From Spirochaetia bacterium (lineage in GTDB: Bacteria; Spirochaetota; Spirochaetia; SZUA-6; Bin103), in contig OZ241863.1 in assembly GCA_965203055.1 (NCBI GenBank), forward strand, positions 2,944,001 through 3,008,000: a stretch of DNA of 64,000 nucleotides, written 5' to 3'. Both the position numbers and the translations under genes were made by a program. Positions 12,166-53,629 of this stretch are shown piece after piece. The notes under the pieces are model-generated. The model ran no database searches, was not told the DNA's origin, and saw nothing but the letters and a program-made list of their open reading frames with translations. Position 1 is the stretch's first letter. Each line of letters starts with the position of its first letter.

Positions 12166-12193
12166 GATAGCCTGAGCGCCGCGCCGCTATCAT
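12164..12193. repeat. Intergenic palindrome copy (ATGATA-N18-TATCAT)
   Basis: atgatagc...gctatcat followed by ccgctcatccgcc, as in the other copies. Confidence 0.85.
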
Positions 12194-12265
12194 CCGCTCA
12201 TCCGCCTGCCTCACGGCCCTGCGCCGCGGCCGGCGCCACCCGAATCATTCGGTTGGCACTTCTCG

Positions 12266-27853: not shown

Positions 27854-29407
27854 TCACCCTTCGCCTACCCGGACCCGAAGCTGCCTGCCGGACAGCGTGT
27901 CGCGCGCCCAAAACAGGTTCTGGTACCGGTCGTTGCCGCTTTCCGCCAGCACTGCGACGCCGGTCGCGGTGGTGCCTGTGGACGGCGCCGCCGCAAAGGT
28001 GACGGTGGGGGCCGAAGTATAGCCGCTCCCCCCGTTCGTGATCGTCACTGACGTAACCTCGGTTCTCAACGTCGCGGTGCCGACGGCCGTGGTGGCGCTG
28101 CCGCCGGACGGCGCTGCCGCAAAGGTGACGGTGGGGGCCGAGGTGTAGCCGCTCCCCGGGTTCGTGATCGTCACGTCCGCCACGTCATAGTTCATCACCG
28201 CGGTACCGATCGCCGTGGTGCCGCTGCGCGGTGGCGAAAAGTACACCGCGGGCGCCGAGGTATAGCCGCTCCCCCCGCTCGTGATCGTCACTCCGTCGAT
28301 CTTCTCGCGCAGCACCGCAACGCCGCGTGACCCGCCATCGGGATCGCCGCCGGCATTCGGGGCGAAGGTCACGGTGGGGGCCGAGGTGTAGCCGCTCCCC
28401 CGGTATCTGTCATCCCAATAGAACCCGACGCGGTCGACCTTGTCGCCGGAAAGGAACACGGTGACTATACTCGGCTTGGTCCCGCCCGGCCGCTGCGGTG
28501 CCGAGAATATGATCCGGGGCGTCGCGGTCCAGCCGCTCCCCGCCTCCGTGATCGTCACTGACTCGACTCTGTCGGGCCCAAACACGGTGCCGGCAGCCGT
28601 GGCGCCGCCGGCCGGCGGGGCCCCGAACGCGACGGTTGCGGTCGGGGTGTAGCCGGTCCCGCCGCTCGTGATCGACACCGACGCGACTTGACCGATTGCC
28701 ACTGCGGCGGCGGCAGCCGTGGTGCCGCCGGACGGCGCTGCCGCAAAGGTGACGGCGGGGGCCGAGGTGTAGCCGGCTCCCGGCGTCGTGACCCTCACGG
28801 ACGCGACTTGACCGGGCCCCGCCGCGGTGCCGGCGGCTGTGGCGCCGGCGGCCGGCGCGGCCCCGAACGTCACGGCCGGGGGCGCGGTGTAGCCGCTCCC
28901 GCGGTTCGTGATCCTGACCGACTCGACGTAGTCCAGCGCTTCCGTCTGATTCGGGGCGGTGAGCACGAGCACCACCGCTCCCGCACGGACTTCGAAGTCA
29001 ACCCTCCACTCCGCGCCGCTGAGATCGTTCTCGAAGCGCGGTGCGGTCGCCTTGTTCGTGAACGGCAGGTCGTGGCCGTCGATCGACACGGTCACCTTCT
29101 CGCCCTCGGCGCCGGTGATCCCGTCCCAGGCGAACGGCTTGGAACGGTTGGACGTTGCGATCAGGTTCGCGTCGTCATCGAAGGCGTCCTCCCCGATGGA
29201 CCAGATCTTCTCTGCCTGCTGTGTCTGCTGTGGCGGCGGGTCGGCCTCAGGCGGGGAGGCAGGCGAGGCAGGCGACGCCGGGGCGGCGGCGGTCGTTGCG
29301 GGTGGCCGCGCCGCCTGCGGGCACGCCGTCAGCGCGATGCCGGCGGCCACCGCGAGCGCCAGCATCGCTGCCGTCCGCTCCCTTACGCCCTTGGTTTCAG
29401 TCATCAT
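27854..29407 (-). CDS. Lipoprotein with eight ~40-aa V.SVTIT..GSGYTSAPTVTF repeats
   Basis: Lipobox LTAC, Pro/Ala linker, 8 tandem beta-rich repeats. The frame is also open from ATG 29512 (MPNPRRLERA). Confidence 0.75.
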   Translation of the reverse strand: MMTETKGVRERTAAMLALAVAAGIALTACPQAARPPATTAAAPASPASPASPPEADPPPQQTQQAEKIWSIGEDAFDDDANLIATSNRSKPFAWDGITGAEGEKVTVSIDGHDLPFTNKATAPRFENDLSGAEWRVDFEVRAGAVVLVLTAPNQTEALDYVESVRITNRGSGYTAPPAVTFGAAPAAGATAAGTAAGPGQVASVRVTTPGAGYTSAPAVTFAAAPSGGTTAAAAAVAIGQVASVSITSGGTGYTPTATVAFGAPPAGGATAAGTVFGPDRVESVTITEAGSGWTATPRIIFSAPQRPGGTKPSIVTVFLSGDKVDRVGFYWDDRYRGSGYTSAPTVTFAPNAGGDPDGGSRGVAVLREKIDGVTITSGGSGYTSAPAVYFSPPRSGTTAIGTAVMNYDVADVTITNPGSGYTSAPTVTFAAAPSGGSATTAVGTATLRTEVTSVTITNGGSGYTSAPTVTFAAAPSTGTTATGVAVLAESGNDRYQNLFWARDTLSGRQLRVRVGEG

Positions 29408-34932: not shown

Positions 34933-34962
34933 ATGATAGCCGGAACGGTACGCGGCCATCAT
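34933..34962. repeat. Intergenic palindrome copy (one mismatch)
   Basis: atgatagccg...cggccatcat between GT4 and AAA copy 4. Confidence 0.85.
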
Positions 34963-34979
34963 CCGCTCATCCGCCGGCC

Positions 34980-37304: not shown

Positions 37305-39677
37305 TCACTCGCTGCCGGCTGACCGCCCGTTCGGCTGCGCCGCGGCCGGCGCCGCAATCTCCGCACTCCAGAGTTCGCCCTCCCCGCTGATGAACTGGCC
37401 GGTGCGGAGGCCGGCGATCGCGTAGTCCGGCAACGGCGCCAGGATCACGCATGCTTCGCCGAGCAGCGCTCCGTATTCCCGGTAGTCGAAGCCGACGTTC
37501 TCGAAGCCGTGCGGCCGGTGTTGCGGGGACAGGTCCCGCGCGTCCGCCGGGATCACGTGCAGGAAGAACCGTTCCCGCACGTCCTCCTCGGTGCACGGCT
37601 CCTTGTGGTACGCCAGCACCCTTCCGGCGTGATAGAGGTCGAAGACCCCGCGGGCCGGTGCTCCCCAGGCGCCGGAGCGGATCGCGGCGCGCGCCTCCCA
37701 ATAGCGCTGCGCGGTCGGTCCGGCCGGGAACTCCACGCTCCAGAGCTGCCGCCCGCCCACCCGAACGAACTGCCCGGTGCGGATGCGCGTGAACTCGTAG
37801 TCGGGCAGTACCACGACCGCCATGCAGGCGCCGTCGAGCCGCGCGCCGCCCTCGTAGAAGTAGAAATCCAGGTTGTCGAACCCCTGCTGAGACGCGGGAA
37901 GGTCGGCGGCGTTCGCCGGGAAGACGTGCAGGAAGAACTTCTCCTGCACGTCTTCCGGCGCGCATCGGTTCTTGACGTAGGTGAGCGTCGCGCCGTCGAG
38001 ATACAGGTCGAAGTGCGAGCTGGCGGTCGGCTCCCGCGACCGTGTGGAGCGGTACGCTGACCGGAATGCGGCTGCGGTATCGTCTCCCGGCGACGGGTCG
38101 AGTCTGGCAACCGTGAGGATGACGTTGTGGTAGATGCGGCGCGCGTATACCACGGACGAAAACGGGAATCTGCGGCGCTGATCGGCGAGCGTAGCGCTGG
38201 TGATGACGTAGTAATGGCTCGCTACGTCGGGCACGCGGTCGGCGATGACGATTCTGCGCCGCTCGGCCGCGGGGAGCAGTCCCAGATTTCTGATCAAGGT
38301 CGGCTGAGGTGGGACGACGTGGACGGTTGCCGTCGGGTGGTGCCGGAGCAGATACTCCAGCCCATCCCGTTGCGCCGTTCCATAGTGGTTCATCTCGTAG
38401 CGGGTGCGCAGGTATTCGGGGGTACGGCGGTCCACCAGGAAGTTGAAGTATACGTGCTGATAGGGATGCAGGCGCGCGAGGTCGACCGCCATGCCGGCCA
38501 GCGCCGCCGCCGCCAGCGCGTAGACGCCGCGCCGCAGCCACGGCCGGCGCGCGGCTGCCAGCAGCCAGCGCATGCCGTAGACCGCCAGCAGGCACAGCGG
38601 CGCGGCCAGGAAGTACATGTGCCGCCAGCCGTGGTAGAGGTTGGAGTTGACCACGATGACGGCCGCGATCGACAGCGCCGGACAGGCAACCAGCAGCACC
38701 CCGAAGCGCGTGACGGGGGTGTTGCGGAGCGCGGAGCGCGGGCGGATCATGCCGCGCCCGAGCACGGCGCCGAACCCGGCCAGGCTCAGCAGCAGCGCCG
38801 CCGGCGGCGTGGTGATCGCCATCCAGGTGGGCAGGTAGTGCGGCGGAATCTCCGGCCAGCGCACCAACTCGCCCTGAAACAACATCCAAGCGCGGATGGG
38901 ATGGTGCGCCAGCGTGACGACGGCGTCGATCAGCTCGAACGGGTTGCGCCAGAGATGGGGCGAGACCGCGTACAGGGCCGCCGCCGCGGCCAGCAGGAAC
39001 GCGCCGGCGGTCGCCAGCGCGCGCCGCCGCTCCGCCGGCCCGCCGGCCCGCAGCAGATCAAGCGCTCGCAGCGCCGGCACCGCCGCGCACAGCAGCAGGC
39101 CCATGACCCGCAGGTTGACCAGCACGCCCACGCTCAGCCCGCAGAGCGCGAACGCGCCGGCGGTGTCGCGGCGGAAGGCGCGCTGCGTCAGGTAGAGCGC
39201 GATCATGAACATCGCCAGGAAGGGGATGTCCTTGGTGTTGAAGAAGGAGTGCGCGTACAGGCGGGGCTGCAGCAGGAACAGCAGCAGGGCGAACAGCGCC
39301 AAGCGGCGGTCGCGGAACAGGCGGAAGGCGAGCAGCCAGCAGAAGAAGCCGCCGGTGAGGAAGAACAGGTGAGTCAGCAGGCGGCGGCTGAGGTAGACGG
39401 CGCGGCTGTCGGTGAGGCCGAGCAGCCGCTCGACCAGGATCAGCGGCGCTTCGAATGCGGCTCCGTAGTACCGGTCATGGCCTGCCGGCAGGGCGCCGGT
39501 TGCGCCCTGCGCGTAGGCGATCGCCGCTTGGCCCAGGCGGCGCTGATAGGGCGTATCCGACGCCACGCCGTAGTCGTCGAGGACGGCGGCGCCCACCGCT
39601 GCGAACGCGATGATCGCGATGAGCGCGTCACGCCACGGCAAGCCGGCGGTTCGGCGGTTCGACAACAGGATTGCCAC
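37305..39677 (-). CDS. GT-C type membrane glycosyltransferase paralog GT5
   Basis: Same architecture; DT instead of DE in the first loop; two AACCGCCG units near the 5' end. Confidence 0.75.
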   Translation of the reverse strand: MAILLSNRRTAGLPWRDALIAIIAFAAVGAAVLDDYGVASDTPYQRRLGQAAIAYAQGATGALPAGHDRYYGAAFEAPLILVERLLGLTDSRAVYLSRRLLTHLFFLTGGFFCWLLAFRLFRDRRLALFALLLFLLQPRLYAHSFFNTKDIPFLAMFMIALYLTQRAFRRDTAGAFALCGLSVGVLVNLRVMGLLLCAAVPALRALDLLRAGGPAERRRALATAGAFLLAAAAALYAVSPHLWRNPFELIDAVVTLAHHPIRAWMLFQGELVRWPEIPPHYLPTWMAITTPPAALLLSLAGFGAVLGRGMIRPRSALRNTPVTRFGVLLVACPALSIAAVIVVNSNLYHGWRHMYFLAAPLCLLAVYGMRWLLAAARRPWLRRGVYALAAAALAGMAVDLARLHPYQHVYFNFLVDRRTPEYLRTRYEMNHYGTAQRDGLEYLLRHHPTATVHVVPPQPTLIRNLGLLPAAERRRIVIADRVPDVASHYYVITSATLADQRRRFPFSSVVYARRIYHNVILTVARLDPSPGDDTAAAFRSAYRSTRSREPTASSHFDLYLDGATLTYVKNRCAPEDVQEKFFLHVFPANAADLPASQQGFDNLDFYFYEGGARLDGACMAVVVLPDYEFTRIRTGQFVRVGGRQLWSVEFPAGPTAQRYWEARAAIRSGAWGAPARGVFDLYHAGRVLAYHKEPCTEEDVRERFFLHVIPADARDLSPQHRPHGFENVGFDYREYGALLGEACVILAPLPDYAIAGLRTGQFISGEGELWSAEIAAPAAAQPNGRSAGSE

Positions 39678-39750: not shown

Positions 39751-39778
39751 CATAGCCTGAACGCCGAGCGGTTATCAT
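39751..39778. repeat. Degenerate intergenic palindrome copy
   Basis: catagcc...ggttatcat followed by ccgctcattcgc. Confidence 0.7.
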
Positions 39779-39794
39779 CCGCTCATTCGCGGCC

Positions 39795-41693
39795 TCACGG
39801 TTTCCGCGCCGCGGCCGGCGCCTCGATCTCCGCCGCCCAGAGCTGGCCCTGCCCGCTGATGAACTGGCCGGTGCGGAGGCGGACGATCTCATACTCCGGG
39901 AGTGTCGCGGCTACCAGGCAGGCGCCGTCCCAGAGCACGCCGCGCGTCCAGAAATCGAAGTCGAGGTTGTCGAACCCCTGCTCCCGGCTGTCGGCGGCCA
40001 GATCGTCTTCGCCGGCCGGAAAGACGTGCAGGAAGAAGCGCTCCCGGACATCCGCCCGAACGCAGGGCTCCTTCGCGTACACCAGCCGGTCCCCGGCCAG
40101 ATACAGGTCGAACACCCCGCCGGCGGCGCGCTGCCGGCCGTCCAGGGCCGCCGCCAGCTCCTCGAACCGCGCCCGCTCCTTGGCCAGGTAGTACTCCTTC
40201 TCGAACGTTGCGGCGCGCGCGTATGCGGGCGCCGCCGCCGGCGGCCGCAGCATGGTCTCGCCCATGATCGACTCGATGCCGCCGTAGGCCCGGTACCGCC
40301 GCGAGGAGTGCGGCCGCGGCACGTACCGTTGCCGGGCAACGACCCGGAACACTTCGTTGCCGGCCGCGTCCACCTCGACCACGGTCATCGGCGGGTCGCT
40401 CAATCTCGCGACGAAGTTGATCAGCGTATTGCCGTTGCTCAGCCGGTAGGCGCTGCTCCCGCTCGCCGAGTAGATATCCGGCGTCGGCCGGTACTCCCAC
40501 ACCTTCATCGCGGTGCCGGCCGCCTCGTCCAGCCGCAGCTCCAGCGCGCGCGAGTAGGCGCCGCCCTCGGCGTCGGGACGGCCCCGGCCGTTGTCGAACA
40601 GCAGTACGTTGCCGTCGTCGAGCTGCGCCGCGGTGTGCTGCCCGTAGAACCGGTCGTTCGGGTTCGGGAACTCGTAATCGCTGTCCGGTCCGTTCAGTTG
40701 CCATTCGATAGTCCACGAGTCCACGCTGAGCGAGACCACCTGATTGCGCGCGCGCGATGACAGGACGACGTTGCCGCGCGGGCCGATGCTCACCGAGTTG
40801 AGGTGCGTCCAACTGAAGTTGCTGCCGGTGCGGGTCCTCGCCCCGCGCTGGGCCGGGTCCAGCAGGTCCCAGGCGTCCGTCGAGTCCCAAACCTGCTCGA
40901 AGTGTCCGCTTCCCCGGTCCCAGACGCGCAGCTGGTCGGCGAACCCGGACGCATCCTGCGCCGGCCCGCCGTTCGCCGAGTCGTCGAAGACGAAGCGTGC
41001 CCGGCTCAGGTAGATCACGCGTTCGGCGTCGAGCACGGCGACGTCGTGGTGGGGATTCCCCGCGGCGCCACCCCGCGCGAACCGGTTGACCACTGCTCCC
41101 AGTGGGGTGATCTCGACCAGACTGCCTCCGCGCGCGAAGAGCAAGCTGCCGGCGGGCAACTGCGCGATGGGGCCGACGAGCCCTTCATGGTAATGGTACC
41201 AGACAATTCCGCCCACTTCGTCCTGGAAGACGTAGTACGCGCGCGGTTGATCGGACAGGATGAGCGGCTGCGAGCTCCTGCCGCGCACCTGCATCGGGAT
41301 GGCGGCGAGGGCCAGCGGCAGCGGTCCGGTGGTGAACCGGCCGCGCGGCCCGGCGGTCGCATGCGCGCCGTCGACCGCGGCCTCGTCCGTTACGGAGCCG
41401 TCCACCACGAAGATGGTGTAGTCGTAGGTCGTCTCCGGGCGCAGCCGGACGAGCGGGATGGCGTGCGCCGCGCCCGGCTCGCTCAGCGGCGTGCGGTAGC
41501 GGCCGGCCTGCGGGTTGTCGTACTCGACGAACACCCGCGCCGCGCGCGCCAGCGTCACCCGCACCTCGACGATCAGCGCGTTGCGCTCGCTGACCGACGC
41601 GCCGTGGCGCAGGACGGCGGCCGCGTCCGCGGACGCCAGGGCCGCGCCGACCACGATCAACGCAGCCGCTAGCGGCAGCTTCCTGCGCGTCAT
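39795..41693 (-). CDS. Secreted arylsulfotransferase paralog 4 with AAA-gene-derived N-terminus
   Basis: Starts MTRRKLP (as the AAA genes do) then LAAALIVVGAALASA; ASST motifs PHHD, WTHLNSV, GQHTA. Confidence 0.8.
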   Translation of the reverse strand: MTRRKLPLAAALIVVGAALASADAAAVLRHGASVSERNALIVEVRVTLARAARVFVEYDNPQAGRYRTPLSEPGAAHAIPLVRLRPETTYDYTIFVVDGSVTDEAAVDGAHATAGPRGRFTTGPLPLALAAIPMQVRGRSSQPLILSDQPRAYYVFQDEVGGIVWYHYHEGLVGPIAQLPAGSLLFARGGSLVEITPLGAVVNRFARGGAAGNPHHDVAVLDAERVIYLSRARFVFDDSANGGPAQDASGFADQLRVWDRGSGHFEQVWDSTDAWDLLDPAQRGARTRTGSNFSWTHLNSVSIGPRGNVVLSSRARNQVVSLSVDSWTIEWQLNGPDSDYEFPNPNDRFYGQHTAAQLDDGNVLLFDNGRGRPDAEGGAYSRALELRLDEAAGTAMKVWEYRPTPDIYSASGSSAYRLSNGNTLINFVARLSDPPMTVVEVDAAGNEVFRVVARQRYVPRPHSSRRYRAYGGIESIMGETMLRPPAAAPAYARAATFEKEYYLAKERARFEELAAALDGRQRAAGGVFDLYLAGDRLVYAKEPCVRADVRERFFLHVFPAGEDDLAADSREQGFDNLDFDFWTRGVLWDGACLVAATLPEYEIVRLRTGQFISGQGQLWAAEIEAPAAARKP

Positions 41694-41729: not shown

Positions 41730-41756
41730 ATGATAGCCGAACGGCGCGGCTATCAT
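41730..41756. repeat. Intergenic palindrome copy (ATGATA-N15-TATCAT)
   Basis: atgatagccg-aacggcg-cggctatcat. Confidence 0.9.
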
Positions 41757-41773
41757 CCGCTCATCCGCCGGCT

Positions 41774-44104
41774 TCACGGCCCCTGCGCCGCGGCCGGCGC
41801 CTCGATCTCCGCGCTCCAGAGCTGGCCCTGCCCGCTGATGAACTGGCCGGTGCGGAGGCCGGCGATCGCGTATTCCGGCAACGGCGCCAGCGCCACGCAC
41901 GCTTCGCCGAGCCGCACCCCATGTTCCCGGTAGTCGAAGCTCAGGTTCTCGAAGCCGTACGGCCGGTCGTGCGCGGCAAGGTCCTCCGCGTCCGCCGGAA
42001 TCACGTGCAGGAAGAACCGCTCCCGCACGTCCGCCGCGGCGCACGGCTCCTTGTGGAAGGTCAGCACGCCGCCGTCGAGATAGAGGTCGAAGGCGGCGCG
42101 GGCGGCCGGCTCGCCCCGGTCCCCGGCGGAGATCGCCTGATGCGCCTGCCAAAACCGGCTCACGGACGGTTCCGTCGCGGCAAGGTCGATGGTCGCTTCG
42201 ATCAGGGCGCCTGCGCCGGGGACCAGCCGGCCGATTTCGAGCGCCCGGATCGGGTAGTCCGGCAAGATGCGGCGTATCATACACCGCCCGTCGAAGCGCA
42301 CCCCGTAGTGGCCGAACCGGAAGGTGAACGGATACCGGCCGCCGTCGCGGCGGATCAGGGGAAGATCATCGACCTCGACGGGAGCGGCCCGTAGCGTGAA
42401 CGGATGCGCGGTATCCTCCGGGCGGCACGCTTCCTTGACGTAGGTCAGCGTCCGGCCGTCGAGATAGAGGTCGAACTCCGACCGGAATAGCGGCTCCCCG
42501 GCGACCGTCGCGCGGTACGCTTGGCGATAGCGGTCGGCGGTGGCTTGGTCGACCCGGGACAGGTCGACTGCGGTGACCGCGAGCACGGTGTTGTGGTAGA
42601 TGCGGCGCGCGTAGAGGACCGGACCGAACGGCGGTTCCGTGCCAAGATGCCGGTAATCGGTGGCGAAGGAGAAGTCGGCCGCCCTGCCTGCTTCGTCGGC
42701 AATGAATAGCCGGCGCCGTTCCTCCGCCGGCAGGATGGACGCATTGCGCCGCACGTTGTGACTCCAGACGAAGGTCCGGTCCACGTAGCTCGGCGACTCG
42801 GGGTAGCGTTCGAGCAGAAATTCCAGCCCTTCCCGGTACTGGGTGCCCCAATACATCACCTGATAGCGGGTGTTCAGGCGCTCCGGGGTGCGGCGGTCGA
42901 CCAGGAAGTTGAAGTAGGCCTGTTGATGGGGATGGAGGCGCGCGATGTCGACCGCCATGCCGGCCAGCGCCGCCGCGGCCAGAGCGTAGAGTCCGCGCCG
43001 CAGCCACGGTTGGGGAGCGGCGGCGAGCAGCCGGCGCAGGCCGAAGACGGCCAGCAGGCACAGCGGGGCGTACAGGAAGTACATGTGGCGCCAACCGTTG
43101 TAGAGGTTGGAGCGCAGCGCCATGACGGCGGCGATCGGGAGCAGCAGGCAGGCGAGCAGCAGGAACAGGAAGCGCACGCCGGTATTGCGGACCAGTGCAC
43201 CGGGGCGGGCGGCGCCGCGACCGATCACGGCCGCGACGCCGAACAGGCACAGCAGCAGGGTGGCCGGCGGCGTGGTGATCGCCATCCAGGTGGGCAGGTA
43301 GTGCGGCGGAATCTCCGGCCAGCGCACCAGCTCGCCCTGGAACAGCGTCGCACTGCGGGAGGGATGGTGCGTGAACGTGGCGACGGCGTCGATCAGCTCC
43401 AGCGGGTTGCGCCAGAGATTGGGGGAAACCGCGTACAGGGTCGCCGCCGCGGCCAGCAGGAACGCGCCGGCGGTCGCCAGCGCGCGGCGCCGCTCCCCCG
43501 GCCCGTCGGCCCGCAGCAGATCAAGCGCCCGCAGCGCCGGCACCGCCGCGCACAGCAGCAGGCCCATGACGCGCAGGTTGACCAGCACGCCCACGCTCAG
43601 CCCGCAGAGCGCGAACGCGCCGGCGGTGTCGCGGCGGAAGGCGCGCTGCGTCAGGTAGAGCGCGATCATGAACATGACCAGGAAGGGGATGTCCTTGGTG
43701 TTGAAGAAGGAGTGGGCGTACAGGCGAGGCTGCAGCAGGAACAGCAGCAGGGCGAACAGCGCCAGCCGGCGGTCGCGGAACAGGCGGAAGGCGAGCAGCC
43801 AGCAGAAGAAGCCGCCGGTGAGGAAGGACAGGTGGGTCAGCAGGTGGCGGCTGAGGTAGATGGCGCGGCTGTCGGTGAGGCCGAGCAGCCGCTCGACCAG
43901 GATCAGCGGCGCTTCGAACGCGACTCCGTAGTATCGGTCATGGTGGTCCGGCAGAGCGCCGGCGTCGCCCAGCGCGTAGGCGACCGCCATCTGGCCGATG
44001 CGGCGCTGCTTGAGCGTATCGTGCGCCACGCCGTAGTCGTCGAGGACGGCGGCGCCCACCGCCGCGAACGCGATGAGCGCGACGAGCGCGTCACGCCACG
44101 GCAA
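41774..44104 (-). CDS. GT-C type membrane glycosyltransferase paralog GT6 (divergent periplasmic part)
   Basis: Same core; first C-terminal domain divergent; 5' end abuts the 8-bp repeat tract. Confidence 0.75.
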   Translation of the reverse strand: MPWRDALVALIAFAAVGAAVLDDYGVAHDTLKQRRIGQMAVAYALGDAGALPDHHDRYYGVAFEAPLILVERLLGLTDSRAIYLSRHLLTHLSFLTGGFFCWLLAFRLFRDRRLALFALLLFLLQPRLYAHSFFNTKDIPFLVMFMIALYLTQRAFRRDTAGAFALCGLSVGVLVNLRVMGLLLCAAVPALRALDLLRADGPGERRRALATAGAFLLAAAATLYAVSPNLWRNPLELIDAVATFTHHPSRSATLFQGELVRWPEIPPHYLPTWMAITTPPATLLLCLFGVAAVIGRGAARPGALVRNTGVRFLFLLLACLLLPIAAVMALRSNLYNGWRHMYFLYAPLCLLAVFGLRRLLAAAPQPWLRRGLYALAAAALAGMAVDIARLHPHQQAYFNFLVDRRTPERLNTRYQVMYWGTQYREGLEFLLERYPESPSYVDRTFVWSHNVRRNASILPAEERRRLFIADEAGRAADFSFATDYRHLGTEPPFGPVLYARRIYHNTVLAVTAVDLSRVDQATADRYRQAYRATVAGEPLFRSEFDLYLDGRTLTYVKEACRPEDTAHPFTLRAAPVEVDDLPLIRRDGGRYPFTFRFGHYGVRFDGRCMIRRILPDYPIRALEIGRLVPGAGALIEATIDLAATEPSVSRFWQAHQAISAGDRGEPAARAAFDLYLDGGVLTFHKEPCAAADVRERFFLHVIPADAEDLAAHDRPYGFENLSFDYREHGVRLGEACVALAPLPEYAIAGLRTGQFISGQGQLWSAEIEAPAAAQGP

Positions 44105-44110
44105 GCCGCC

Positions 44111-44286
44111 GGTTCGGCGGTTCGGCGGTTCGGCGGTTCGGCGGTTCGGCGGTTCGGCGGTTCGGCGGTTCGGCGGTTCGGCGGTTCGGCGGTTCGGCGG
44201 TTCGGCGGTTCGGCGGTTCGGCGGTTCGGCGGTTCGGCGGTTCGGCGGTTCGGCGGTTCGGCGGTTCGGCGGTTCGGCGGTTCGGC
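44111..44286. repeat. Simple sequence repeat (GGTTCGGC)22
   Basis: 176 bp of perfect 8-mer units, counted directly. Confidence 0.97.
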
Positions 44287-44290
44287 GACA

Positions 44291-44319
44291 GGATGCCTCG
44301 TATTGCCATAAGGTGTCAA
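44291..44319 (-). promoter_or_regulatory. Putative promoter in the AT-richer leader shared by GT6 and GT7
   Basis: TTGACA at 44319-44314 with a weak -10 (CATCCT) 18 nt downstream; near-identical leader at 49140-49248. Confidence 0.45.
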
Positions 44320-44459
44320 CCTACTCGGCATTTTCATTTGCTGTTGCTGCTGCATTTTGCTTGCTTTGCCGCACGTAAACCTTCCTCGAACATGGGCACG
44401 TCACTTTGTCACTTTGGTGGGGGCTGACCGCCCGTTCGGCTGCACGCCGGCGGGCGCCA

Positions 44460-44741
44460 GCGCCGAAGTCGAGGCGCACCACCGGGCGGCGCTTGGACCA
44501 CTCCGAGTGATCGTGCACGTGCAGGCCGCGGAACAGCTCCTCGCTGCCCTCGAACAGTTCCTTGATGGTGTCCAGCAGCAGGCTCTTGCCGAACCGCCGC
44601 GGGCGCGACGGAAGTAGTGCGTGCCTCCCCACACCAAGCACAGGATGAAGGCGGTCTTGTCGACGTAGTAGCGTAGTAGCAGTCGTCCTCGCGGAGCTTG
44701 CGGAAGGTCTGAATGCCGGTCGGCAGCTTCCTGCGCGTCAT
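44460..44741 (-). pseudogene. Frameshifted 5' fragment of an AAA-ATPase gene
   Basis: MTRRKLPTGIQTF..., 8-bp duplication gtagtagc, further indels; ends at RLDFG. Confidence 0.9.
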
Positions 44742-44777
44742 GGGCGCGTCTCGGTGCGGCGCGGTCACTGTGCGGCC

Positions 44778-44806
44778 ATGATAGCCGAACGGCGCGCGGC
44801 TATCAT
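44778..44806. repeat. Intergenic palindrome copy (ATGATA-N17-TATCAT)
   Basis: atgatagccg-aacggcgcg-cggctatcat. Confidence 0.9.
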
Positions 44807-44823
44807 CCGCTCATCCGCCGGCC

Positions 44824-44940
44824 TCACGGCCCCTGCGCCGCGGCCGGCGCCTTGATCTCCGCGCTCCAGAGCTGGCCCTCCCCGCTGATGAACTGGCCGG
44901 TGCGGAGGCCGGCGATCGCGTATTCCGGCAACGGCGCCAG
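44824..44940 (-). pseudogene. Orphan 3' end of the shared two-Cys domain
   Basis: Encodes LAPLPEYAIAGLRTGQFISGEGQLWSAEIKAPAAAQGP*. Confidence 0.85.
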
Positions 44941-46613: not shown

Positions 46614-48947
46614 TCATTCGCCGGAGTCGGCCTCACGGCCCTGCGCCGCGGCCGGCGCCGCAATCTCCGCGCTCCAGAGCTGGCCTTCGCCGCTGATGAA
46701 CTGGCCGGTGCGGAGGCCGGCGATCTCATACTTCGGCAACGGCGCCAGCGCCACGCACGCCGCGCCGAACAGCGCCCCGTGTTCCCGGTAGTCGAAGTCC
46801 CGGTTCTCGAAGCCGCGCAGCCGGTCTTGCGGGGACAGAGCCCCGGCGTCCGCGGGAATCACGTGCAGGAAGAACCGCGCCCGCAGGTCCTCCGCCGCGC
46901 ACGGCTCCTTGTGATACGCCAGCACCGTTCCGTTCAGATAGAGGTCGAACGCTCCGCGCGCGGCCGGCGCTCCCCAGGCGCCGGAGCGGATCGCGGCGCT
47001 CGCATCCCGATAGCGCTGCGCGGTCGGTCCGGCCGCGAACTCGACGCTCCACAGTTGGGGCCAGCCGCGGGTTTCGAACTGCCCGGTACGGATGCGCGTG
47101 AACTCGTAATCGGGCAGTGCCACGACCGCCACGCAGGCGCCGTCGATCCGCGCGCCGCCCTCCCAGAGATAGAAGTCCCAGTTGTCGAACCCCGACTCCC
47201 GCTGGTGGGCGGGCAGGTCGGCGGCATCCGCGGGGAAGACGTGCAGGGAGAACTTCTTCTCATCCAGGTCCTCCACCGGGCAGCTATCCTTGACATAGGT
47301 CAGCGTGGTGCCGTCGAGATACAGGTCGTAGTCCGAACTGGCGACCGGCTCCCGCGACCGTGCGGAGCGGTACGCTTCCCGGAAGTCGGCCACGGTCGCA
47401 GCGTCGAGCTGCGCCGGGTCGAGGGCGGCCACCGTGAGGATGGTGTTGTGGTAGATGCGGCGCGCATAGACCGCGGGCGAGAACGGGAAGCTGCGGCGGT
47501 GATTGGCACGAGTATGATTGGTGATGGCGTAGTGATGGGTCGCCGCGGCGTCATGCGCGCGGTCGGAGATGACGATTCTGCGGCGCTCGGCCGCCGGGAG
47601 TATGCGCAGATTGGCGCTGACGAGCGCGTATCTCCAGTTCTTCGCCGCAACGACGTGGACCGTTTCCTGCGGGTGGCGGCGGAGCAGATGCTCCAGCCCC
47701 TCGCGGTAGGCCGGCCCCCAGTACTCCATCTCGTAGCGGGTGCGCAGGTATTCGGGGGTGCGGCGGTCGACCAGGAAGTTGAAGTAGACCATCTGATGGG
47801 GATGGATCAGCGCCATCTCGACCGCGGCCGCGGCCAAGCCCGCCGCGGCCAGCGCGTAGATGCCGCGCCGGAGCCACCGCCGCCCGCCCCGCGGCGGCAG
47901 CAGCCGGCGCAGGCCGTAGACCGCCAGCAGGGCCAGCGGCGCGGCCAGGAAGTACATCTGCCGCCAGCCGTTGTAGAGATTGGCGTCGACCGCGATGACG
48001 GCCGCGACCGGCAGCGCCAGGCAGGCGACCAGCAGCGCCCCGAAGCGCGTGACGGGGGTGTTGCGGAGGACCTCGCGCGGGCGCGTCAGGCTGCGCGCGA
48101 ACACGGCGACGATTCCGGCCAGGCTCAGCAGCAGCGCCGCCGGCGGCGTGGTGATCGCCATCCAGGTCGGCAGGTAGTGCGGCGGAACCTCCGGCCAGCG
48201 CACCATTTCGCCTTGAAACAGTGTTGGAATAGGGGAGGGATGGCGCGCGAACGTGACGACGGCGTCGATCAGCTCAAACGGGTCGCGCCAGAGATGGGGC
48301 GAGACCGCGTACAGGGCCGCCGCCGCGGCCAGCAGGAACGCCCCGGCGGTCGCCAGCGCGCGCCTCCGCTCCGCCGGCCCATGCGCCTGCAGCAGGTCGA
48401 GCGCCCGCAGCGCCGGCACCGCGGCGCACAGCAGCAGGCCCATGACGCGCAGGTTGACCAGCACGCCCACGCCCAGCCCGCAGAGCGCGAACGCCCCGGC
48501 GGTGTCGCGGCGGAAGGCGCGCTGCACCAAGTAGAGCGCGATCATGAACATCGCCAGGAAGGGGATGTCCTTGGTGTTGAAGAAGGAGTGGGCGTACAGG
48601 CGGGGCTGCAGCAGGAACAGCAGCAGGGCGAACAGCGCCAGCCGGCGGTCGCGGAACAGGCGGAAGGCGAGCAGCCAGCAGAAGAAGCCGCCGGTGAGGA
48701 AGAACAGGTGGGTCAGCAGGTGGCGGCTGAGGTAGACGGCGCGGCTGTCGGTGAGGCCGAGCAGCCGTTCGACCAGGATCAGCGGCGCCTCGAACGCGAC
48801 TCCGTAGTACCGGTTGTGGTCGGTCGGCAGGGCGCCGGCGTCGCCCAGCGCGTAGGCGATCCGCGTCTGGCCGATGCGGCGCTGGTGGTGCTCATCCCAC
48901 GATATGCCGTAGTCGTCGAGCACGGCGGCGCCCAGCGCCGCGAACAC
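46614..48947 (-). CDS. GT-C type membrane glycosyltransferase paralog GT7 (near-duplicate of GT1)
   Basis: Homology (PWRDALIAL) extends to 48977 but there is no in-frame start before TM1; 5' end abuts the 8-bp repeat tract. Confidence 0.75.
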   Translation of the reverse strand: MFAALGAAVLDDYGISWDEHHQRRIGQTRIAYALGDAGALPTDHNRYYGVAFEAPLILVERLLGLTDSRAVYLSRHLLTHLFFLTGGFFCWLLAFRLFRDRRLALFALLLFLLQPRLYAHSFFNTKDIPFLAMFMIALYLVQRAFRRDTAGAFALCGLGVGVLVNLRVMGLLLCAAVPALRALDLLQAHGPAERRRALATAGAFLLAAAAALYAVSPHLWRDPFELIDAVVTFARHPSPIPTLFQGEMVRWPEVPPHYLPTWMAITTPPAALLLSLAGIVAVFARSLTRPREVLRNTPVTRFGALLVACLALPVAAVIAVDANLYNGWRQMYFLAAPLALLAVYGLRRLLPPRGGRRWLRRGIYALAAAGLAAAAVEMALIHPHQMVYFNFLVDRRTPEYLRTRYEMEYWGPAYREGLEHLLRRHPQETVHVVAAKNWRYALVSANLRILPAAERRRIVISDRAHDAAATHHYAITNHTRANHRRSFPFSPAVYARRIYHNTILTVAALDPAQLDAATVADFREAYRSARSREPVASSDYDLYLDGTTLTYVKDSCPVEDLDEKKFSLHVFPADAADLPAHQRESGFDNWDFYLWEGGARIDGACVAVVALPDYEFTRIRTGQFETRGWPQLWSVEFAAGPTAQRYRDASAAIRSGAWGAPAARGAFDLYLNGTVLAYHKEPCAAEDLRARFFLHVIPADAGALSPQDRLRGFENRDFDYREHGALFGAACVALAPLPKYEIAGLRTGQFISGEGQLWSAEIAAPAAAQGREADSGE

Positions 48948-48980
48948 CGCCAGCGCGATGAGCGCGTCACGCCACGGCGT

Positions 48981-49139
48981 GTTCGGCGGTTCGGCGGTTC
49001 GGCGGTTCGGCGGTTCGGCGGTTCGGCGGTTCGGCGGTTCGGCGGTTCGGCGGTTCGGCGGTTCGGCGGTTCGGCGGTTCGGCGGTTCGGCGGTTCGGCG
49101 GTTCGGCGGTTCGGCGGTTCGGCGGTTCGGCGGTTCGGC
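48981..49139. repeat. Simple sequence repeat (GGTTCGGC), 19 full units plus one 7-bp partial
   Basis: 159 bp, counted directly. Confidence 0.97.
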
Positions 49140-49311
49140 ACAGGATGCCTCGTATTGCCATAAGGTGTCAACCTACTCGGCATTTTCATTTGCTTTTGCT
49201 GCTGCATTTTGCTGCTTGCCTTGCCGCACGTAACCTCTTCCTCGAACACCGGCGGTTGCCTTGAACTGCTCTACTTTGCCGTCACCCGGTGGGGACTGGC
49301 CGCTCGTTCGG

Positions 49312-51246
49312 CTACTCGCCGGCCGGCACCGCAATCTCCGCGCTCCAGAGCCGCCCTCCGCCGGCGCTGAACTGGCCGGTCCGGACGTGGGAGATCTCAT
49401 ACTCCGGGAGGGTCGCGGCCACCAGGCAGGCGCCGTCCCAGAACACGCCGCGCGGCCGTTCATCGAAATGAAAGTCGAGATTGTCGAATCCCTGCTCGCG
49501 GCTGCCGGAGGGCAGATCGTCTACGGCGATCGGAACGACGTGCAGAAAGAAGCGCGCCCGGACATCCCGCGGCGCGCAGGGTTCCTTCACGTATACCAGC
49601 CGGTCCCCTGCCCGATACACGTCGAACGCCCCGCCGGCGGCGAGCTGCCGGCCGTCCAGGGCCGCCGCCAGCTCTTCGAACCGCGCCCGTTCCTTGGCCA
49701 GGTAGTAGTCCTTCTCGAACGTCGCGGCGCGCGCGTGCGCGGGCGCCGCCGCCGGCGGCCGCAGCATGGTTTCGCCCATGATCGCCCCGATGCCGCCGTA
49801 GGCTCGATAGCGCGTCGGCAAGGGCCGATCCGCATGCAATGGCAGGTTATCGCCTCGGAACACTTCGTTGCCGGCGGCGTCCACCTCCACGATCGTGTCA
49901 TGGAAGCTGATCAGGGTATTGCCGCTGCGCAGCCGGTACGCGCTGCCCTTGCCCCTCGTGTAGATGTCCGGCGTCGGCCGGTATTCCCACACTTTCACCG
50001 CAGTGCCGGCCGCCTCGTCCAGCCGCAGCTCCAGCGCGCGCGAGTAGGCGCCGCCCTCCGAATCGGGCCGCCCCCAGCCGTTGTCGAACAGCAGAACGTT
50101 GCCGTTGCCGAGCTGCGCCGCCGTGTGCTGCCCGTAGAACCGGTCGTTCGGGTCCGGGAACCGGTAATCGCTGTCCGGCCCGTGCAGTTGCCACTCGATC
50201 GCCCGCAAGTCGGCGCTGAGCGAGACCACCTGATTGCGCACGCGGGACGACAGGATGACGTTGCCGCGCGGACCGACGCTCACCGAGTTGAGGCCCGTCC
50301 ACTGGAAGACGGCGTTGTTTGATCTCGTTCTCGTATCGCGCAGTGCCGGGTCCAGCAGGTCCCAGGCGTCCTTCGAGTCCCAGACCTGCTCGAAGTGTCC
50401 GCTTTCCCGGTCATAGACGCGCAGATTGTCGACCCCGAACGCAGCTTCCGCCGGCCCGCCGTTCGCCGAGTCGTCGAAGACGACGGACTTCCGGGTCAGG
50501 TAGATCACCCGGCCATCGGCGAGCACGGTGAGCTCATGGTGGGGATGCCCCGCGGGGCCGTCCCGCTCGAACCGGTTGACCATTGCTCCCAATGGGGTGA
50601 TCTCGACCATGCTGTGATATACGAAGAGCAAGTTGCCGTCGGAAAGCTGCGCGATGGGGCCGCCGAACCCCCCTTCATGTTCATGGTACCAGACTATTCC
50701 ACCCACCTCGTCCCAGAAGACGTAGTACCCGCGCGGGTAGTCGGACAGGATGAGCGGCTGCGAGCTCCTGCCGCGCACCTGCAACGGAATGGCGGCGAGG
50801 GGCAGCGGCAGCGGTCCGGTGGTGAACCGGCCGTCCGGCCCGGCGGCCGCATCCGCATCCGCGCCGTCCAGCGCGGCCTCGTCCGTCACGGAGCCGTTCA
50901 CCACGAAGATGGTGTAGTCGTAGGTCGTCTCCGGGCGCAGCCTGACGACCGGGATGGCGTGCGCCGCGCCGGGTTCGCTCAGCGGCGTGCGGTAGCGGCC
51001 GGCCTGCGGGTTGTCGTACTCGACGAACACCCGCGCGGCGCGGGCCAGCGCCACCCGCACCTCGACGATCAGCGCGTTGCGCTCGCTGAACGAGGCGTCG
51101 TGCCGCAGGACGGCGGGCGCGTCCGCGGACGCCGGCGCCGCGCCGAACACGATAAACGCAGCCGCCAGCGCCGGCACCAGGCTAGACCGACCATACGGCG
51201 GTCGACGATCTAGCGTCACGCCGGGCGCCGTCAAGATCGATTTCAT
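49312..51246 (-). CDS. Secreted arylsulfotransferase paralog 5
   Basis: ASST motifs but WTGLNSV instead of WTHLNSV. Upstream TTGTCC-N18-TAGAAT. Confidence 0.8.
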   Translation of the reverse strand: MKSILTAPGVTLDRRPPYGRSSLVPALAAAFIVFGAAPASADAPAVLRHDASFSERNALIVEVRVALARAARVFVEYDNPQAGRYRTPLSEPGAAHAIPVVRLRPETTYDYTIFVVNGSVTDEAALDGADADAAAGPDGRFTTGPLPLPLAAIPLQVRGRSSQPLILSDYPRGYYVFWDEVGGIVWYHEHEGGFGGPIAQLSDGNLLFVYHSMVEITPLGAMVNRFERDGPAGHPHHELTVLADGRVIYLTRKSVVFDDSANGGPAEAAFGVDNLRVYDRESGHFEQVWDSKDAWDLLDPALRDTRTRSNNAVFQWTGLNSVSVGPRGNVILSSRVRNQVVSLSADLRAIEWQLHGPDSDYRFPDPNDRFYGQHTAAQLGNGNVLLFDNGWGRPDSEGGAYSRALELRLDEAAGTAVKVWEYRPTPDIYTRGKGSAYRLRSGNTLISFHDTIVEVDAAGNEVFRGDNLPLHADRPLPTRYRAYGGIGAIMGETMLRPPAAAPAHARAATFEKDYYLAKERARFEELAAALDGRQLAAGGAFDVYRAGDRLVYVKEPCAPRDVRARFFLHVVPIAVDDLPSGSREQGFDNLDFHFDERPRGVFWDGACLVAATLPEYEISHVRTGQFSAGGGRLWSAEIAVPAGE

Positions 51247-52946: not shown

Positions 52947-52976
52947 ATGATAGACTGAACGCCGCGCGGCTATCAT
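52947..52976. repeat. Intergenic palindrome copy (ATGATA-N18-TATCAT)
   Basis: atgatagac...ggctatcat followed by ccgctcatccgcc. Confidence 0.85.
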
Positions 52977-52995
52977 CCGCTCATCCGCCCGGCTT

Positions 52996-53543
52996 TCATG
53001 GCCCCTGCGCCGCGGCCGGCGCCGCAAGCTCCGCGCTCCAGAGCTGGCCTTGGCCGCTGATGAACTGGCCGGTGCGGAGGCGGGCGATCCCATACTCCGG
53101 CAACGGCGCCAGCGCCACGCACGCCGCGCCGAGCCGCGCCCCGTGTTCCCGGTAGTCGAAGTCCCGGTTCTCGAAGCCGTGCGGCCGGTCTTGCGGGGAG
53201 AGGTCGCCGGCGTCCGCCGGAATCACGTGCAGGAAGAACCGCGCCCGCAGGTCCTCCGCCGCGCACGGCTCCTTGTGATATGCCAGCGCCGTTCCGTTCA
53301 GATAGAGGTCGAACGCTCCGCGCGCGGCCGGCGCTCCCCAGGTACCGGAGCGGATAGCGGCGCGCGCCTCCCGATAGCGCTGCGCGGTCGGTCCGGCCGC
53401 GAACTCCATGCTCCACAGTTGGGACCGGCCCCGCGCAGCGAGTTGCCCGGTACGGATGCGCGTGAATTCGTAGTCGGGCAGTGCCACGACCGCCACGCAG
53501 GCGCCGTCGAGCCGCATGCCGCCCTCCCAGAGGTAGAAGTCCA
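52996..53543 (-). pseudogene. 5'-truncated glycosyltransferase remnant (1.5 two-Cys domains)
   Basis: Begins abruptly at DFYLWEGG; homology stops at 53543. Confidence 0.85.
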
Positions 53544-53629
53544 AAGTATGAGGGAACAGAAAGCCTGCGTGAACGTATTCGTCATCTTCTTCCGGACGAT
53601 TCGGTATACGGTCGGCGTCTTAGGAGACC

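Follow-up and report, generated by a model that had tools for sequence, protein, structure and literature searches.

Pathogens have supplied almost all that is understood of phase variation driven by changes in repeat number. In the opa genes of Neisseria, CTCTT repeats lie in the region coding for the signal peptide, and each of the many family members has its own tract. In Neisseria lgtA, lgtC and lgtG, in Haemophilus lic2A and lgtC, and in Campylobacter and Helicobacter, repeats within coding regions switch enzymes that add sugars, and such loci combine to diversify surface glycans. Here we describe a locus in an uncultured spirochaete (Spirochaetia bacterium, GenBank assembly GCA_965203055.1), within a stretch of 64,000 nucleotides of contig OZ241863.1 (positions 2,944,001 to 3,008,000, forward strand) that we call the window. 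A long tract of an eight-nucleotide unit stands at the 5′ end of one of its glycosyltransferase genes, GT6. We consider it probable that this tract is a hypermutable simple-sequence repeat in the 5′ coding region of GT6, of the licA or opa type, and we give the same good likelihood to its acting as a translational switch with three states, which at present would be off.

For licA of Haemophilus influenzae, one report places the repeats inside the 5′ end of the open reading frame (ORF), with initiation codons in two of the three upstream frames and none in the third, and makes expression dependent on having a start in frame (PMC2212159). Phase-variable glycosyltransferases of lipooligosaccharide and lipopolysaccharide (LOS/LPS) are partly covered by PMC3938747. 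The repeats upstream of the adhesin gene hmwA in H. influenzae have a unit of 7 bp, or, in biogroup aegyptius, of 8 bp (GCATCATC, 12-15 copies; PMC3309571). In a spirochaete, Treponema pallidum, poly-G tracts in the promoters of tpr and other outer-membrane protein (OMP) genes give phase variation through repeat length (PMC7864442).

The present locus resembles licA (lic1, CAAT) in that a unit not divisible by three lies within the 5′ ORF and starts are available in two of three frames. It differs in its GC-rich unit of 8 nt as against 4 nt, in its 19-32 units, in serving a polytopic GT-C enzyme rather than a choline kinase, and in belonging to an uncultured sponge-associated spirochaete. As in opa, the repeat stands between the ATG and the hydrophobic core of an envelope protein leader, and the protein of a further locus of this genome, that of the GCTCAACC tract described below, matches the Opacity family; unlike in opa, what follows the tract at GT6 is a transmembrane helix of an inner-membrane enzyme and not a cleaved signal peptide, and the unit has 8 nt as against 5 nt. 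An octanucleotide unit is shared with hmwA, where, however, the repeats occupy a putative promoter or leader region outside the ORF, whereas here the downstream frames need a start ahead of the tract. The homopolymers of T. pallidum promoters act on transcription, in contrast to the 8-nt unit of GT6, which lies in the reading frame and downstream of any promoter hexamers. Finally, the LOS/LPS enzymes of pathogens are soluble GT-A or GT-B proteins with homopolymer or tetranucleotide tracts, whereas GT6, with its octanucleotide tract, is predicted to be a membrane protein of the GT-C (PMT_2) class whose C-terminal domain is large and periplasmic. The novelty lies in the setting: the spirochaete is uncultured and sponge-associated, the enzymes form a GT-C family, the 8-nt unit is GC-rich and present in 19-32 copies, and three paralogs would switch in parallel.

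The features of the locus are as follows, with the three reading frames of the leader named a, b and c.

41774..44104, minus strand: GT6, predicted PMT_2-type (GT-C) glycosyltransferase, 776 codons from the first in-frame start, TTG 44104
44091..44093, minus strand: TGA, end of the 72-codon frame-a ORF, 11 nt beyond TTG 44104
44110..44287, minus strand: octanucleotide tract, coding strand (GCCGAACC)n
44307..44309, minus strand: frame-a ATG, opening MAIRGILSPNRR...; GT6 in frame after +1 or -2 units
44313..44319, minus strand: TTGACAC motif, a possible -35 hexamer or part of a Shine-Dalgarno-like AGGTTGA; supplies TTG 44319
44321..44323, minus strand: TAG closing leader frame b, the present frame of GT6
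44329..44355, minus strand: frame-c ATGs 44355, 44337 and 44331, MQQQQQMKMPSRLTPYGNTRHPVAEPP...; GT6 in frame after -1 or +2 units

Tandem Repeats Finder (TRF) reports 22.2 copies of the 8-nt unit with 100% matches at 44110-44287, and a regular expression finds 22 perfect copies of GGTTCGGC at 44111-44286, which bears out the 22 units that an earlier note on this DNA had counted at the 5′ end of GT6. The genome (G000) has 4,557,819 bases in one contig and 68.8% G+C, and its three longest simple repeats, the GT6 tract among them, are all built of this unit. The tract is perfect and its unit length is not a multiple of three; every reading frame through it encodes the period PNRRTAEP and none contains a stop codon. 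On the coding strand it is unstructured (minimum free energy -3.3, z +6.1) and so should not obstruct ribosomes; the G-rich strand can fold into hairpins (-35 kcal/mol, z -2.8).

The minus-strand frame of ATG 44309 begins MAIRGILSPNRRTAEPP..., crosses the tract and terminates at TGA 44093-44091. This ATG stands 205 nt from TTG 44104 and 211 nt from the conserved TGG; each distance leaves a remainder of 1 on division by three, and the long frame after the tract (LPWRDALVALIAF...) is 1 nt out of phase with the ATG. The earlier note had given this read-through, the stop at 44091 and the 205-nt offset, and had reasoned that one unit more or two fewer would fuse the frames; all of this holds, the 211-nt distance agreeing. 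The frame of GT6 itself is open across the entire tract and upstream to 44320, with TAG 44323-44321 beyond, and frame b has no start codon between this TAG and the tract. Frame c contains TTG 44319 besides its three ATGs, and its leader forms a 150-amino-acid (aa) ORF at 43903..44355. The earlier note was right about ATG 44309 and had missed this second leader frame, so that removal of one unit also gives an in-frame start.

In the mechanism that we propose, slipped-strand mispairing would alter the number of 8-nt units, each unit shifting the frame by 2. Frame a, in which ATG 44309 has a Shine-Dalgarno-like site, would probably be a strong ON state, and frame c, whose three ATGs are without such a site, probably a weak one; frame b, closed by TAG, would be OFF, and it is there that GT6 stands with 22 units, one unit from either open frame (+1 would lead to a, -1 to c). 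The tract lies in the reading frame between these starts and the body of the gene, although in GT6 the TTG after the tract leaves some doubt. It is read as coding because GT7, a paralog described below, and the orthologs of GT6 and GT7 in a relative, G011, have no start between the tract and transmembrane helix 1. When ON, the enzyme would have PNRRTAEP repeats as a cytoplasmic tail at its N-terminus, before this helix. With the same switch on GT7 and on a third paralog, envelope-modifying GT-C enzymes could be chosen independently of one another. Slippage at a useful rate within the population, the use of these start codons and a protein level that tracks the frame are what we infer here. The idea of the earlier note, a slipped-strand switch currently out of frame, gains support from the frames, the perfect tract, the differences in unit number and the in-frame sister copies.

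The window contains seven paralogs, all on the minus strand, and the genome has nine full copies and one broken copy in two clusters. Those that bear on the tract are the following.

48975..49139, minus strand: second tract of the GGTTCGGC unit, 20.5 copies, 19 perfect, ahead of GT7
46614..48977, minus strand: body of GT7, a stop-free frame of 788 codons; GTG 48947 as first in-frame start downstream of the tract
G000:C1:2802638-2802898: third tract, 4 units, a CGCC interruption and 28 units, 141 kb before the window
37305..39677, minus strand: GT5, with 2 units at 39644-39661 and an in-frame GTG at 39677 (VAILLSNRRTAGLPW, read as M)

The leader of GT7 is the same as that of GT6, with an ATG at 49161 (49159-49161) and TAG 49175-49173, and GT7 is also in the closed frame; a start at GTG 48947 would truncate its first transmembrane helix. 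In the third paralog (G000:C1:2802595-2805252; L158:595-3252) the homologous ATG is in frame and opens an 885-aa ORF. Its leader has starts in two frames, the third being closed by a TGA that comes from TTGACA, and a TTG directly follows the tract, as in GT6. In GT5, the two units sit between a GTG with a strong Shine-Dalgarno site and the conserved motif; the earlier note had described an in-frame start with two units here, which is correct, the start being GTG 39677, and GT5 looks like the unexpanded state of the tract. The leader (-75..+22) and the first 600 coding nt are 92-95% identical among the three tract-bearing paralogs, as against 75-88% over the next 900 nt (window 44331-43500 compared with 49183-48370, plus L158), which suggests gene conversion of the 5′ module among them.

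The strength of Shine-Dalgarno sites was expressed as the energy of the duplex with the 16S rRNA tail, which ends ...GGATCACCTCCTTT; the median is -5.5 kcal/mol for 658 confident starts and -4.1 kcal/mol for 2000 random positions. ATG 44309, at -6.6 kcal/mol, is the only one of the leader starts with a Shine-Dalgarno-like match. The frame-c ATGs 44355, 44337 and 44331 (-1.8, +0.3 and -0.3 kcal/mol) and TTG 44104 (-1.7 kcal/mol) have no match. At GT7, GTG 48947 reaches -1.2 kcal/mol, and GTG 39677 of GT5 has a strong match at -11.8 kcal/mol.

The number of units varies much faster than the flanks when assemblies are compared. The syntenic locus of G011 is 96.2-98.9% identical to the window, and where GT6 has 22 units its G011 ortholog has 11, between flanks that are 98.9% identical. 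That ortholog is in the closed frame and has no TTG after the tract. The G011 ortholog of GT7 has about 19-20 units and one extra base ahead of the tract, which places it in frame c with an 878-aa ORF. Thus, in-frame copies exist both within this genome (the third paralog) and in its relative. In GT7 and in both G011 orthologs the stretch from the tract to helix 1 contains no ATG, GTG or TTG, and the first start after the tract would leave 6-10 residues before an aspartate pair (D22 and D23 in GT6) that comes right after the first hydrophobic helix and is invariant in 24 aligned homologs from several phyla. The GT6 and GT7 genes are intact and under constraint: the ratio of non-synonymous to synonymous substitution rates (dN/dS) against the G011 orthologs is 0.36 for GT6 (16 synonymous and 16 non-synonymous changes) and 0.31 for GT7 (52 and 47).

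Variation among public assemblies was taken from protein clusters at 90% identity. In-frame forms of the third paralog that start MATQGILS have about 16.5, 30-32 (this genome) and 52 units, those that start from another leader frame have about 9 and about 3, and three members of this cluster are called from the TTG after the tract and are hence out of frame. For GT7, frame c is the in-frame form of the orthologs P0148, P0152 and P0159, and the frame-c forms have about 17, about 20 (G011) and about 26 units; these are spaced by multiples of three units, because a shared frame c demands it. Two further members of the GT7 cluster are called from an internal GTG, like the copy in the window. The combinations of in-frame and out-of-frame paralogs differ between assemblies, which fits independent switching. 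Public gene calls start these glycosyltransferases after the tract or inside helix 1 (P0145, P0025, P0146). Counting frames was considered as a test of translation and set aside as uninformative, since any tract would give random frames.

The same layout recurs at an ASST-like gene and at an Opa-like OMP gene of this genome, whose tracts are as follows.

G000:C1:2793543-2793626 (L159:1043-1126): (ACCGCCG)12, before a 696-codon ASST-like gene
G000:C1:1804096-1804215 (L160): (GCTCAACC)15, right after AAGGAG-N5-ATG and before a 257-codon outer-membrane beta-barrel gene

The ASST-like gene has a signal peptide and no start of its own, and TTGACA-N17-TACAAA precedes its tract. The counterpart in G011 has 15 units (G011:C1:4026524-4026628), and the gene is out of frame in both genomes. 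The beta-barrel protein matches the Pfam families OMP_b-brl, Surface_Ag_2 and Opacity (22.4 bits for a cut-off of 21); its signal peptide likewise lacks a start of its own, and the locus is out of frame in the consensus. In G011, a search for GCTCAACC runs of at least 3 units found none. Genome-wide, there are 27 runs of G or C of at least 12 nt (16 expected) and 11 of at least 16 nt (0.23 expected), many of them at the 5′ ends of long ORFs with high G+C at third codon positions, several of which begin KPPSEP... past the run.

The sequence just upstream of the GT6 tract could also be read in terms of transcription. On the minus strand, TTGACA (44319-44314) is followed by an 18-nt spacer and CATCCT (44295-44290), and the tract starts 2 nt past this candidate -10 hexamer and 26 nt past TTGACA. 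One possibility, which we regard as unlikely, is that the tract is a transcribed leader, in which case transcription from this promoter would begin in the first unit, translation would begin at TTG 44104, and unit number would tune expression gradually in the manner of hmwA, where an octanucleotide repeat has been described in a presumed promoter region (PMC3309571). The -35 hexamer is perfect, the spacer is 18 nt at GT6 and 17 nt at the third paralog, both genes have a TTG right after the tract, and TTGACAC also precedes the 7-mer and GCTCAACC tracts despite being under-represented genome-wide (106 observed vs 220 expected). However, CATCCT agrees with TATAAT at only 3 of 6 positions, and a promoter scan of 43900-44900 called nothing at the leader, its sole call being a palindromic ATGATA/TATCAT site at 44778-44806. 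Moreover, TTG 44104, with the weak duplex given above, would leave only 21 residues ahead of the invariant DD, fewer than the 27-43 seen in homologs with a clean ATG. In GT7 and both G011 orthologs, any start downstream of the tract would truncate helix 1, the ASST-like and OMP loci likewise require a start upstream of the tract, and at the OMP locus a strong Shine-Dalgarno site and ATG stand between TTGACAC and the tract. The alternative offered in the earlier note, a TTGACA promoter with the tract as 5′ untranslated region before TTG 44104, is hard to uphold for the tract family as a whole, given the missing starts in GT7 and both G011 orthologs. A promoter-spacer switch of the kind formed by the poly-G tracts of T. 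pallidum tpr was rejected, as the tract does not lie between the -35 and -10 hexamers.

In all three tract families TTGACAC stands 22-36 nt ahead of the first unit (window 44313-44319; G000:C1:2793515; G000:C1:1804065). At GT5, the position homologous to the TTGACAC stretch is the Shine-Dalgarno site (GGTGA vs GGTTGA). The motif could be a promoter, a ribosome site or a regulator site.

Several observations weigh against a translational switch at GT6. Three of the four copies with this type of leader (GT6, GT7 and the two G011 orthologs) are in the closed frame, and long-silenced genes would look alike. No ON form of GT6 itself occurs in the three assemblies of its cluster, in which every copy is called from after the tract and one is split in two. 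The difference between 22 and 11 units amounts to 96 nt and keeps the frame, which shows mutability and not switching, and unit counts from short-read assemblies or short contigs may have been collapsed by the assembler. TTGACA-N18-CATCCT is a possible promoter whose transcripts would miss all of the leader starts, and TTGACAC, rare as it is in the genome, recurs ahead of two other tract families. Lastly, 38 paralog 5′ ends in three related genomes (G010, G012 and G015; 158 kb) carry no such tract, which makes the switch lineage-specific.

Part of this evidence could be explained if the tract were hypermutable and GT6 a silenced, redundant and decaying paralog, with length changes as neutral by-products of slippage and gene conversion. 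The lack of an in-frame GT6 in its assemblies, the nine full paralogs per genome, a locus that is a mosaic with gene fragments and a 5′ module homogenised among paralogs all speak for this. Nevertheless, we judge it quite improbable, as the 776 codons of GT6 and the 788 of GT7 are stop-free with dN/dS values that indicate constraint, the tracts are without interruptions by TRF, in-frame sister copies and orthologs occur in several assemblies, and the closed frame is a single unit from either open one. Least probable of all, and in our view very much so, is weak expression of GT6 at any tract length through termination at TGA 44093-44091 and re-initiation at TTG 44104, 11 nt upstream, so that the present state would be leaky: the frame-a ORF does overlap this TTG by 11 nt and public annotation calls the gene from it (P0145), but it is a weak start with no Shine-Dalgarno match and the arrangement is missing in GT7 and in the G011 ortholog of GT6, which has no TTG.

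The proposed translational switch at GT6 may be one of many. A broader and more doubtful proposal is that this genome has a genome-wide set of contingency loci in the style of pathogens, in which 8-nt, 7-nt and homopolymer tracts would separate the start codon from the membrane anchor or signal peptide of proteins that include glycosyltransferases, an ASST-like enzyme and an Opa-like porin, and that a GT-C array under three-state switches would generate combinatorial surface glycans and aid persistence among host phagocytes and phages. As part of the same proposal, and no less tentatively, this multicopy, habitat-linked glycosyltransferase family may have gained other types of repeat independently, as poly-C in a gammaproteobacterial metagenome-assembled genome (MAG) and as internal poly-G in spirochaete MAGs. 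The recurrent TTGACAC could mark an added layer of control.

The assignment of GT6 to the GT-C class and PMT_2 type is a prediction from profile matches. Pfam PF13231 (PMT_2) matches GT6 with 37 bits (cut-off 26.1, E 5e-9) and its paralogs with 36.5-38.9 bits, and the match of the family to the Pfam PMT profile is below or near the cut-off. We take an acidic motif in the first extracytoplasmic loop, after transmembrane helix 1, to be what defines GT-C enzymes, and the DD of GT6 fits this. GT6 is like ArnT and PMT enzymes in its above-threshold PMT_2 match and its invariant DD after the first helix, and unlike them it has no match to a solved structure (PDB, single sequence and profile). Comparison of GT6 with NCBIfam models also gave no match. 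The C-terminal domain of about 300 residues belongs to no known family and is common to the adjoining ASST-like proteins; an Atlas search with it returned one match only, of 0.77.

Between the paralogs lie AAA-ATPase_like/PDDEXK_9 genes and ASST-like genes. One further feature adjoins the GT6 leader on its upstream side.

44321..44641, minus strand: fragment of a truncated AAA-ATPase_like gene (Pfam PF09820, profile positions 35-96 of 201)

Window positions 2133-53619 contain a repeated module of an AAA-ATPase_like/PDDEXK_9 gene, a GT-C gene and an ASST-like gene, with fragments at 44321-44641 and 52996-53619. The final ~110 residues of the glycosyltransferases recur at the C-termini of ASST-like proteins (e.g. 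39837-40127 and 49318-49641). A conserved motif immediately follows the stop codons of the array genes; at 39772-39790 it takes the form of a small hairpin, GAGCGG-ATGATAA-CCGCTC, without a T-run. Similar spots after stop codons (41753-41768, 44778-44818, 12190-12205, 34959-34974 and 52973-52988) carry a GCGGATGA doublet (TRF unit TCATCCGC, 2 copies), and the call of the promoter scan at 44778-44806 is the palindrome of this post-stop motif. Longer tandem repeats, with 75-82% matches, are found at 27980-28227 (126 nt, 2 copies) and 28531-28927 (120 nt, 3.3 copies).

Within the spirochaete family, the glycosyltransferase is present at E <=1e-30 in 5 of 24 genomes, with 6-20 matches each, and in none of the other 19. 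The lone repeat of at least 18 nt within 200 nt of the N-termini in G010, G012 and G015 is one in-frame hexamer present three times, and an association of repeats with the family at large was rejected on the 38 tract-free N-termini of these genomes. Relatives that align over the full length at 40-65% identity are multicopy in MAGs of at least six other phyla or classes, under the labels Ca. Binatia, Vicinamibacterales, Gammaproteobacteria, Dehalococcoidia, Longimicrobiales and Caldilineaceae, and this patchy distribution of a multicopy family suggests horizontal spread linked to habitat. Among 64 loci of relatives (L094-L157), long repeats in or next to the gene were found only in G011, L116 and L108/L109. 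The gammaproteobacterial MAG (L116) has two tandem homologs, in which C20 (1965-1984) and C28 (4422-4449) separate an upstream ATG from the N-terminal tail; both homologs are out of frame, and the repeat is of an independent type at the same position of the gene. Two spirochaete MAGs have an internal poly-G of 41 nt (L108:3291-3331; L168:14273-14313) and 21 nt (L109:3291-3311; L164:7826-7846), between residues ~582 and ~595 of the match to GT6, with the C-terminal domain out of frame in both, lengths of homopolymers in assemblies being uncertain.

A metagenome scan for the junction of leader and tract gave no match, and one for four units found the octamer in 72 loci (L022-L093; 4-13 units), none of which has a relative of GT6 within 1.5 kb (tblastn E 1e-5), so the octamer also occurs in unrelated contexts. 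Degenerate PNRRTAEP-like periods are seen in unrelated proteins (P0004, P0011 and P0003), among them a cation ATPase, a VWA protein and fungal hypothetical proteins. For the locus, 24 sequencing runs are listed, none of them of RNA, with a best share of 0.36. The leader was compared with four of them through short k-mer contigs that are unable to span the tract; the junction was present with no differences in runs X6 and X7 (44258-44342) and, in X1 and X4, which are sponge-metagenome runs, with a single difference (44281-44357 and 44283-44361).

A search of the literature turned up no account of phase variation through repeats in sponge symbionts, and the available part of a paper on a spirochaete of latrunculid sponges (PMC11656744) holds nothing relevant. 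The locus presents what reads as the full anatomy of a switch in an uncultured high-GC spirochaete whose DNA occurs in sponge metagenomes, and the tract-bearing paralogs belong to a glycosyltransferase family that a few genomes, from several phyla, carry in very many copies. Gene calls that start after the tract or inside helix 1 conceal both the switch and the real N-terminus. If our reading is right, simple markers of the switch would be unit counts in long reads and the peptide TAEPPNR in metaproteomes, and stochastic variation of surface glycans would be among the means by which symbionts of early-diverging animals coexist with their hosts or their phages.

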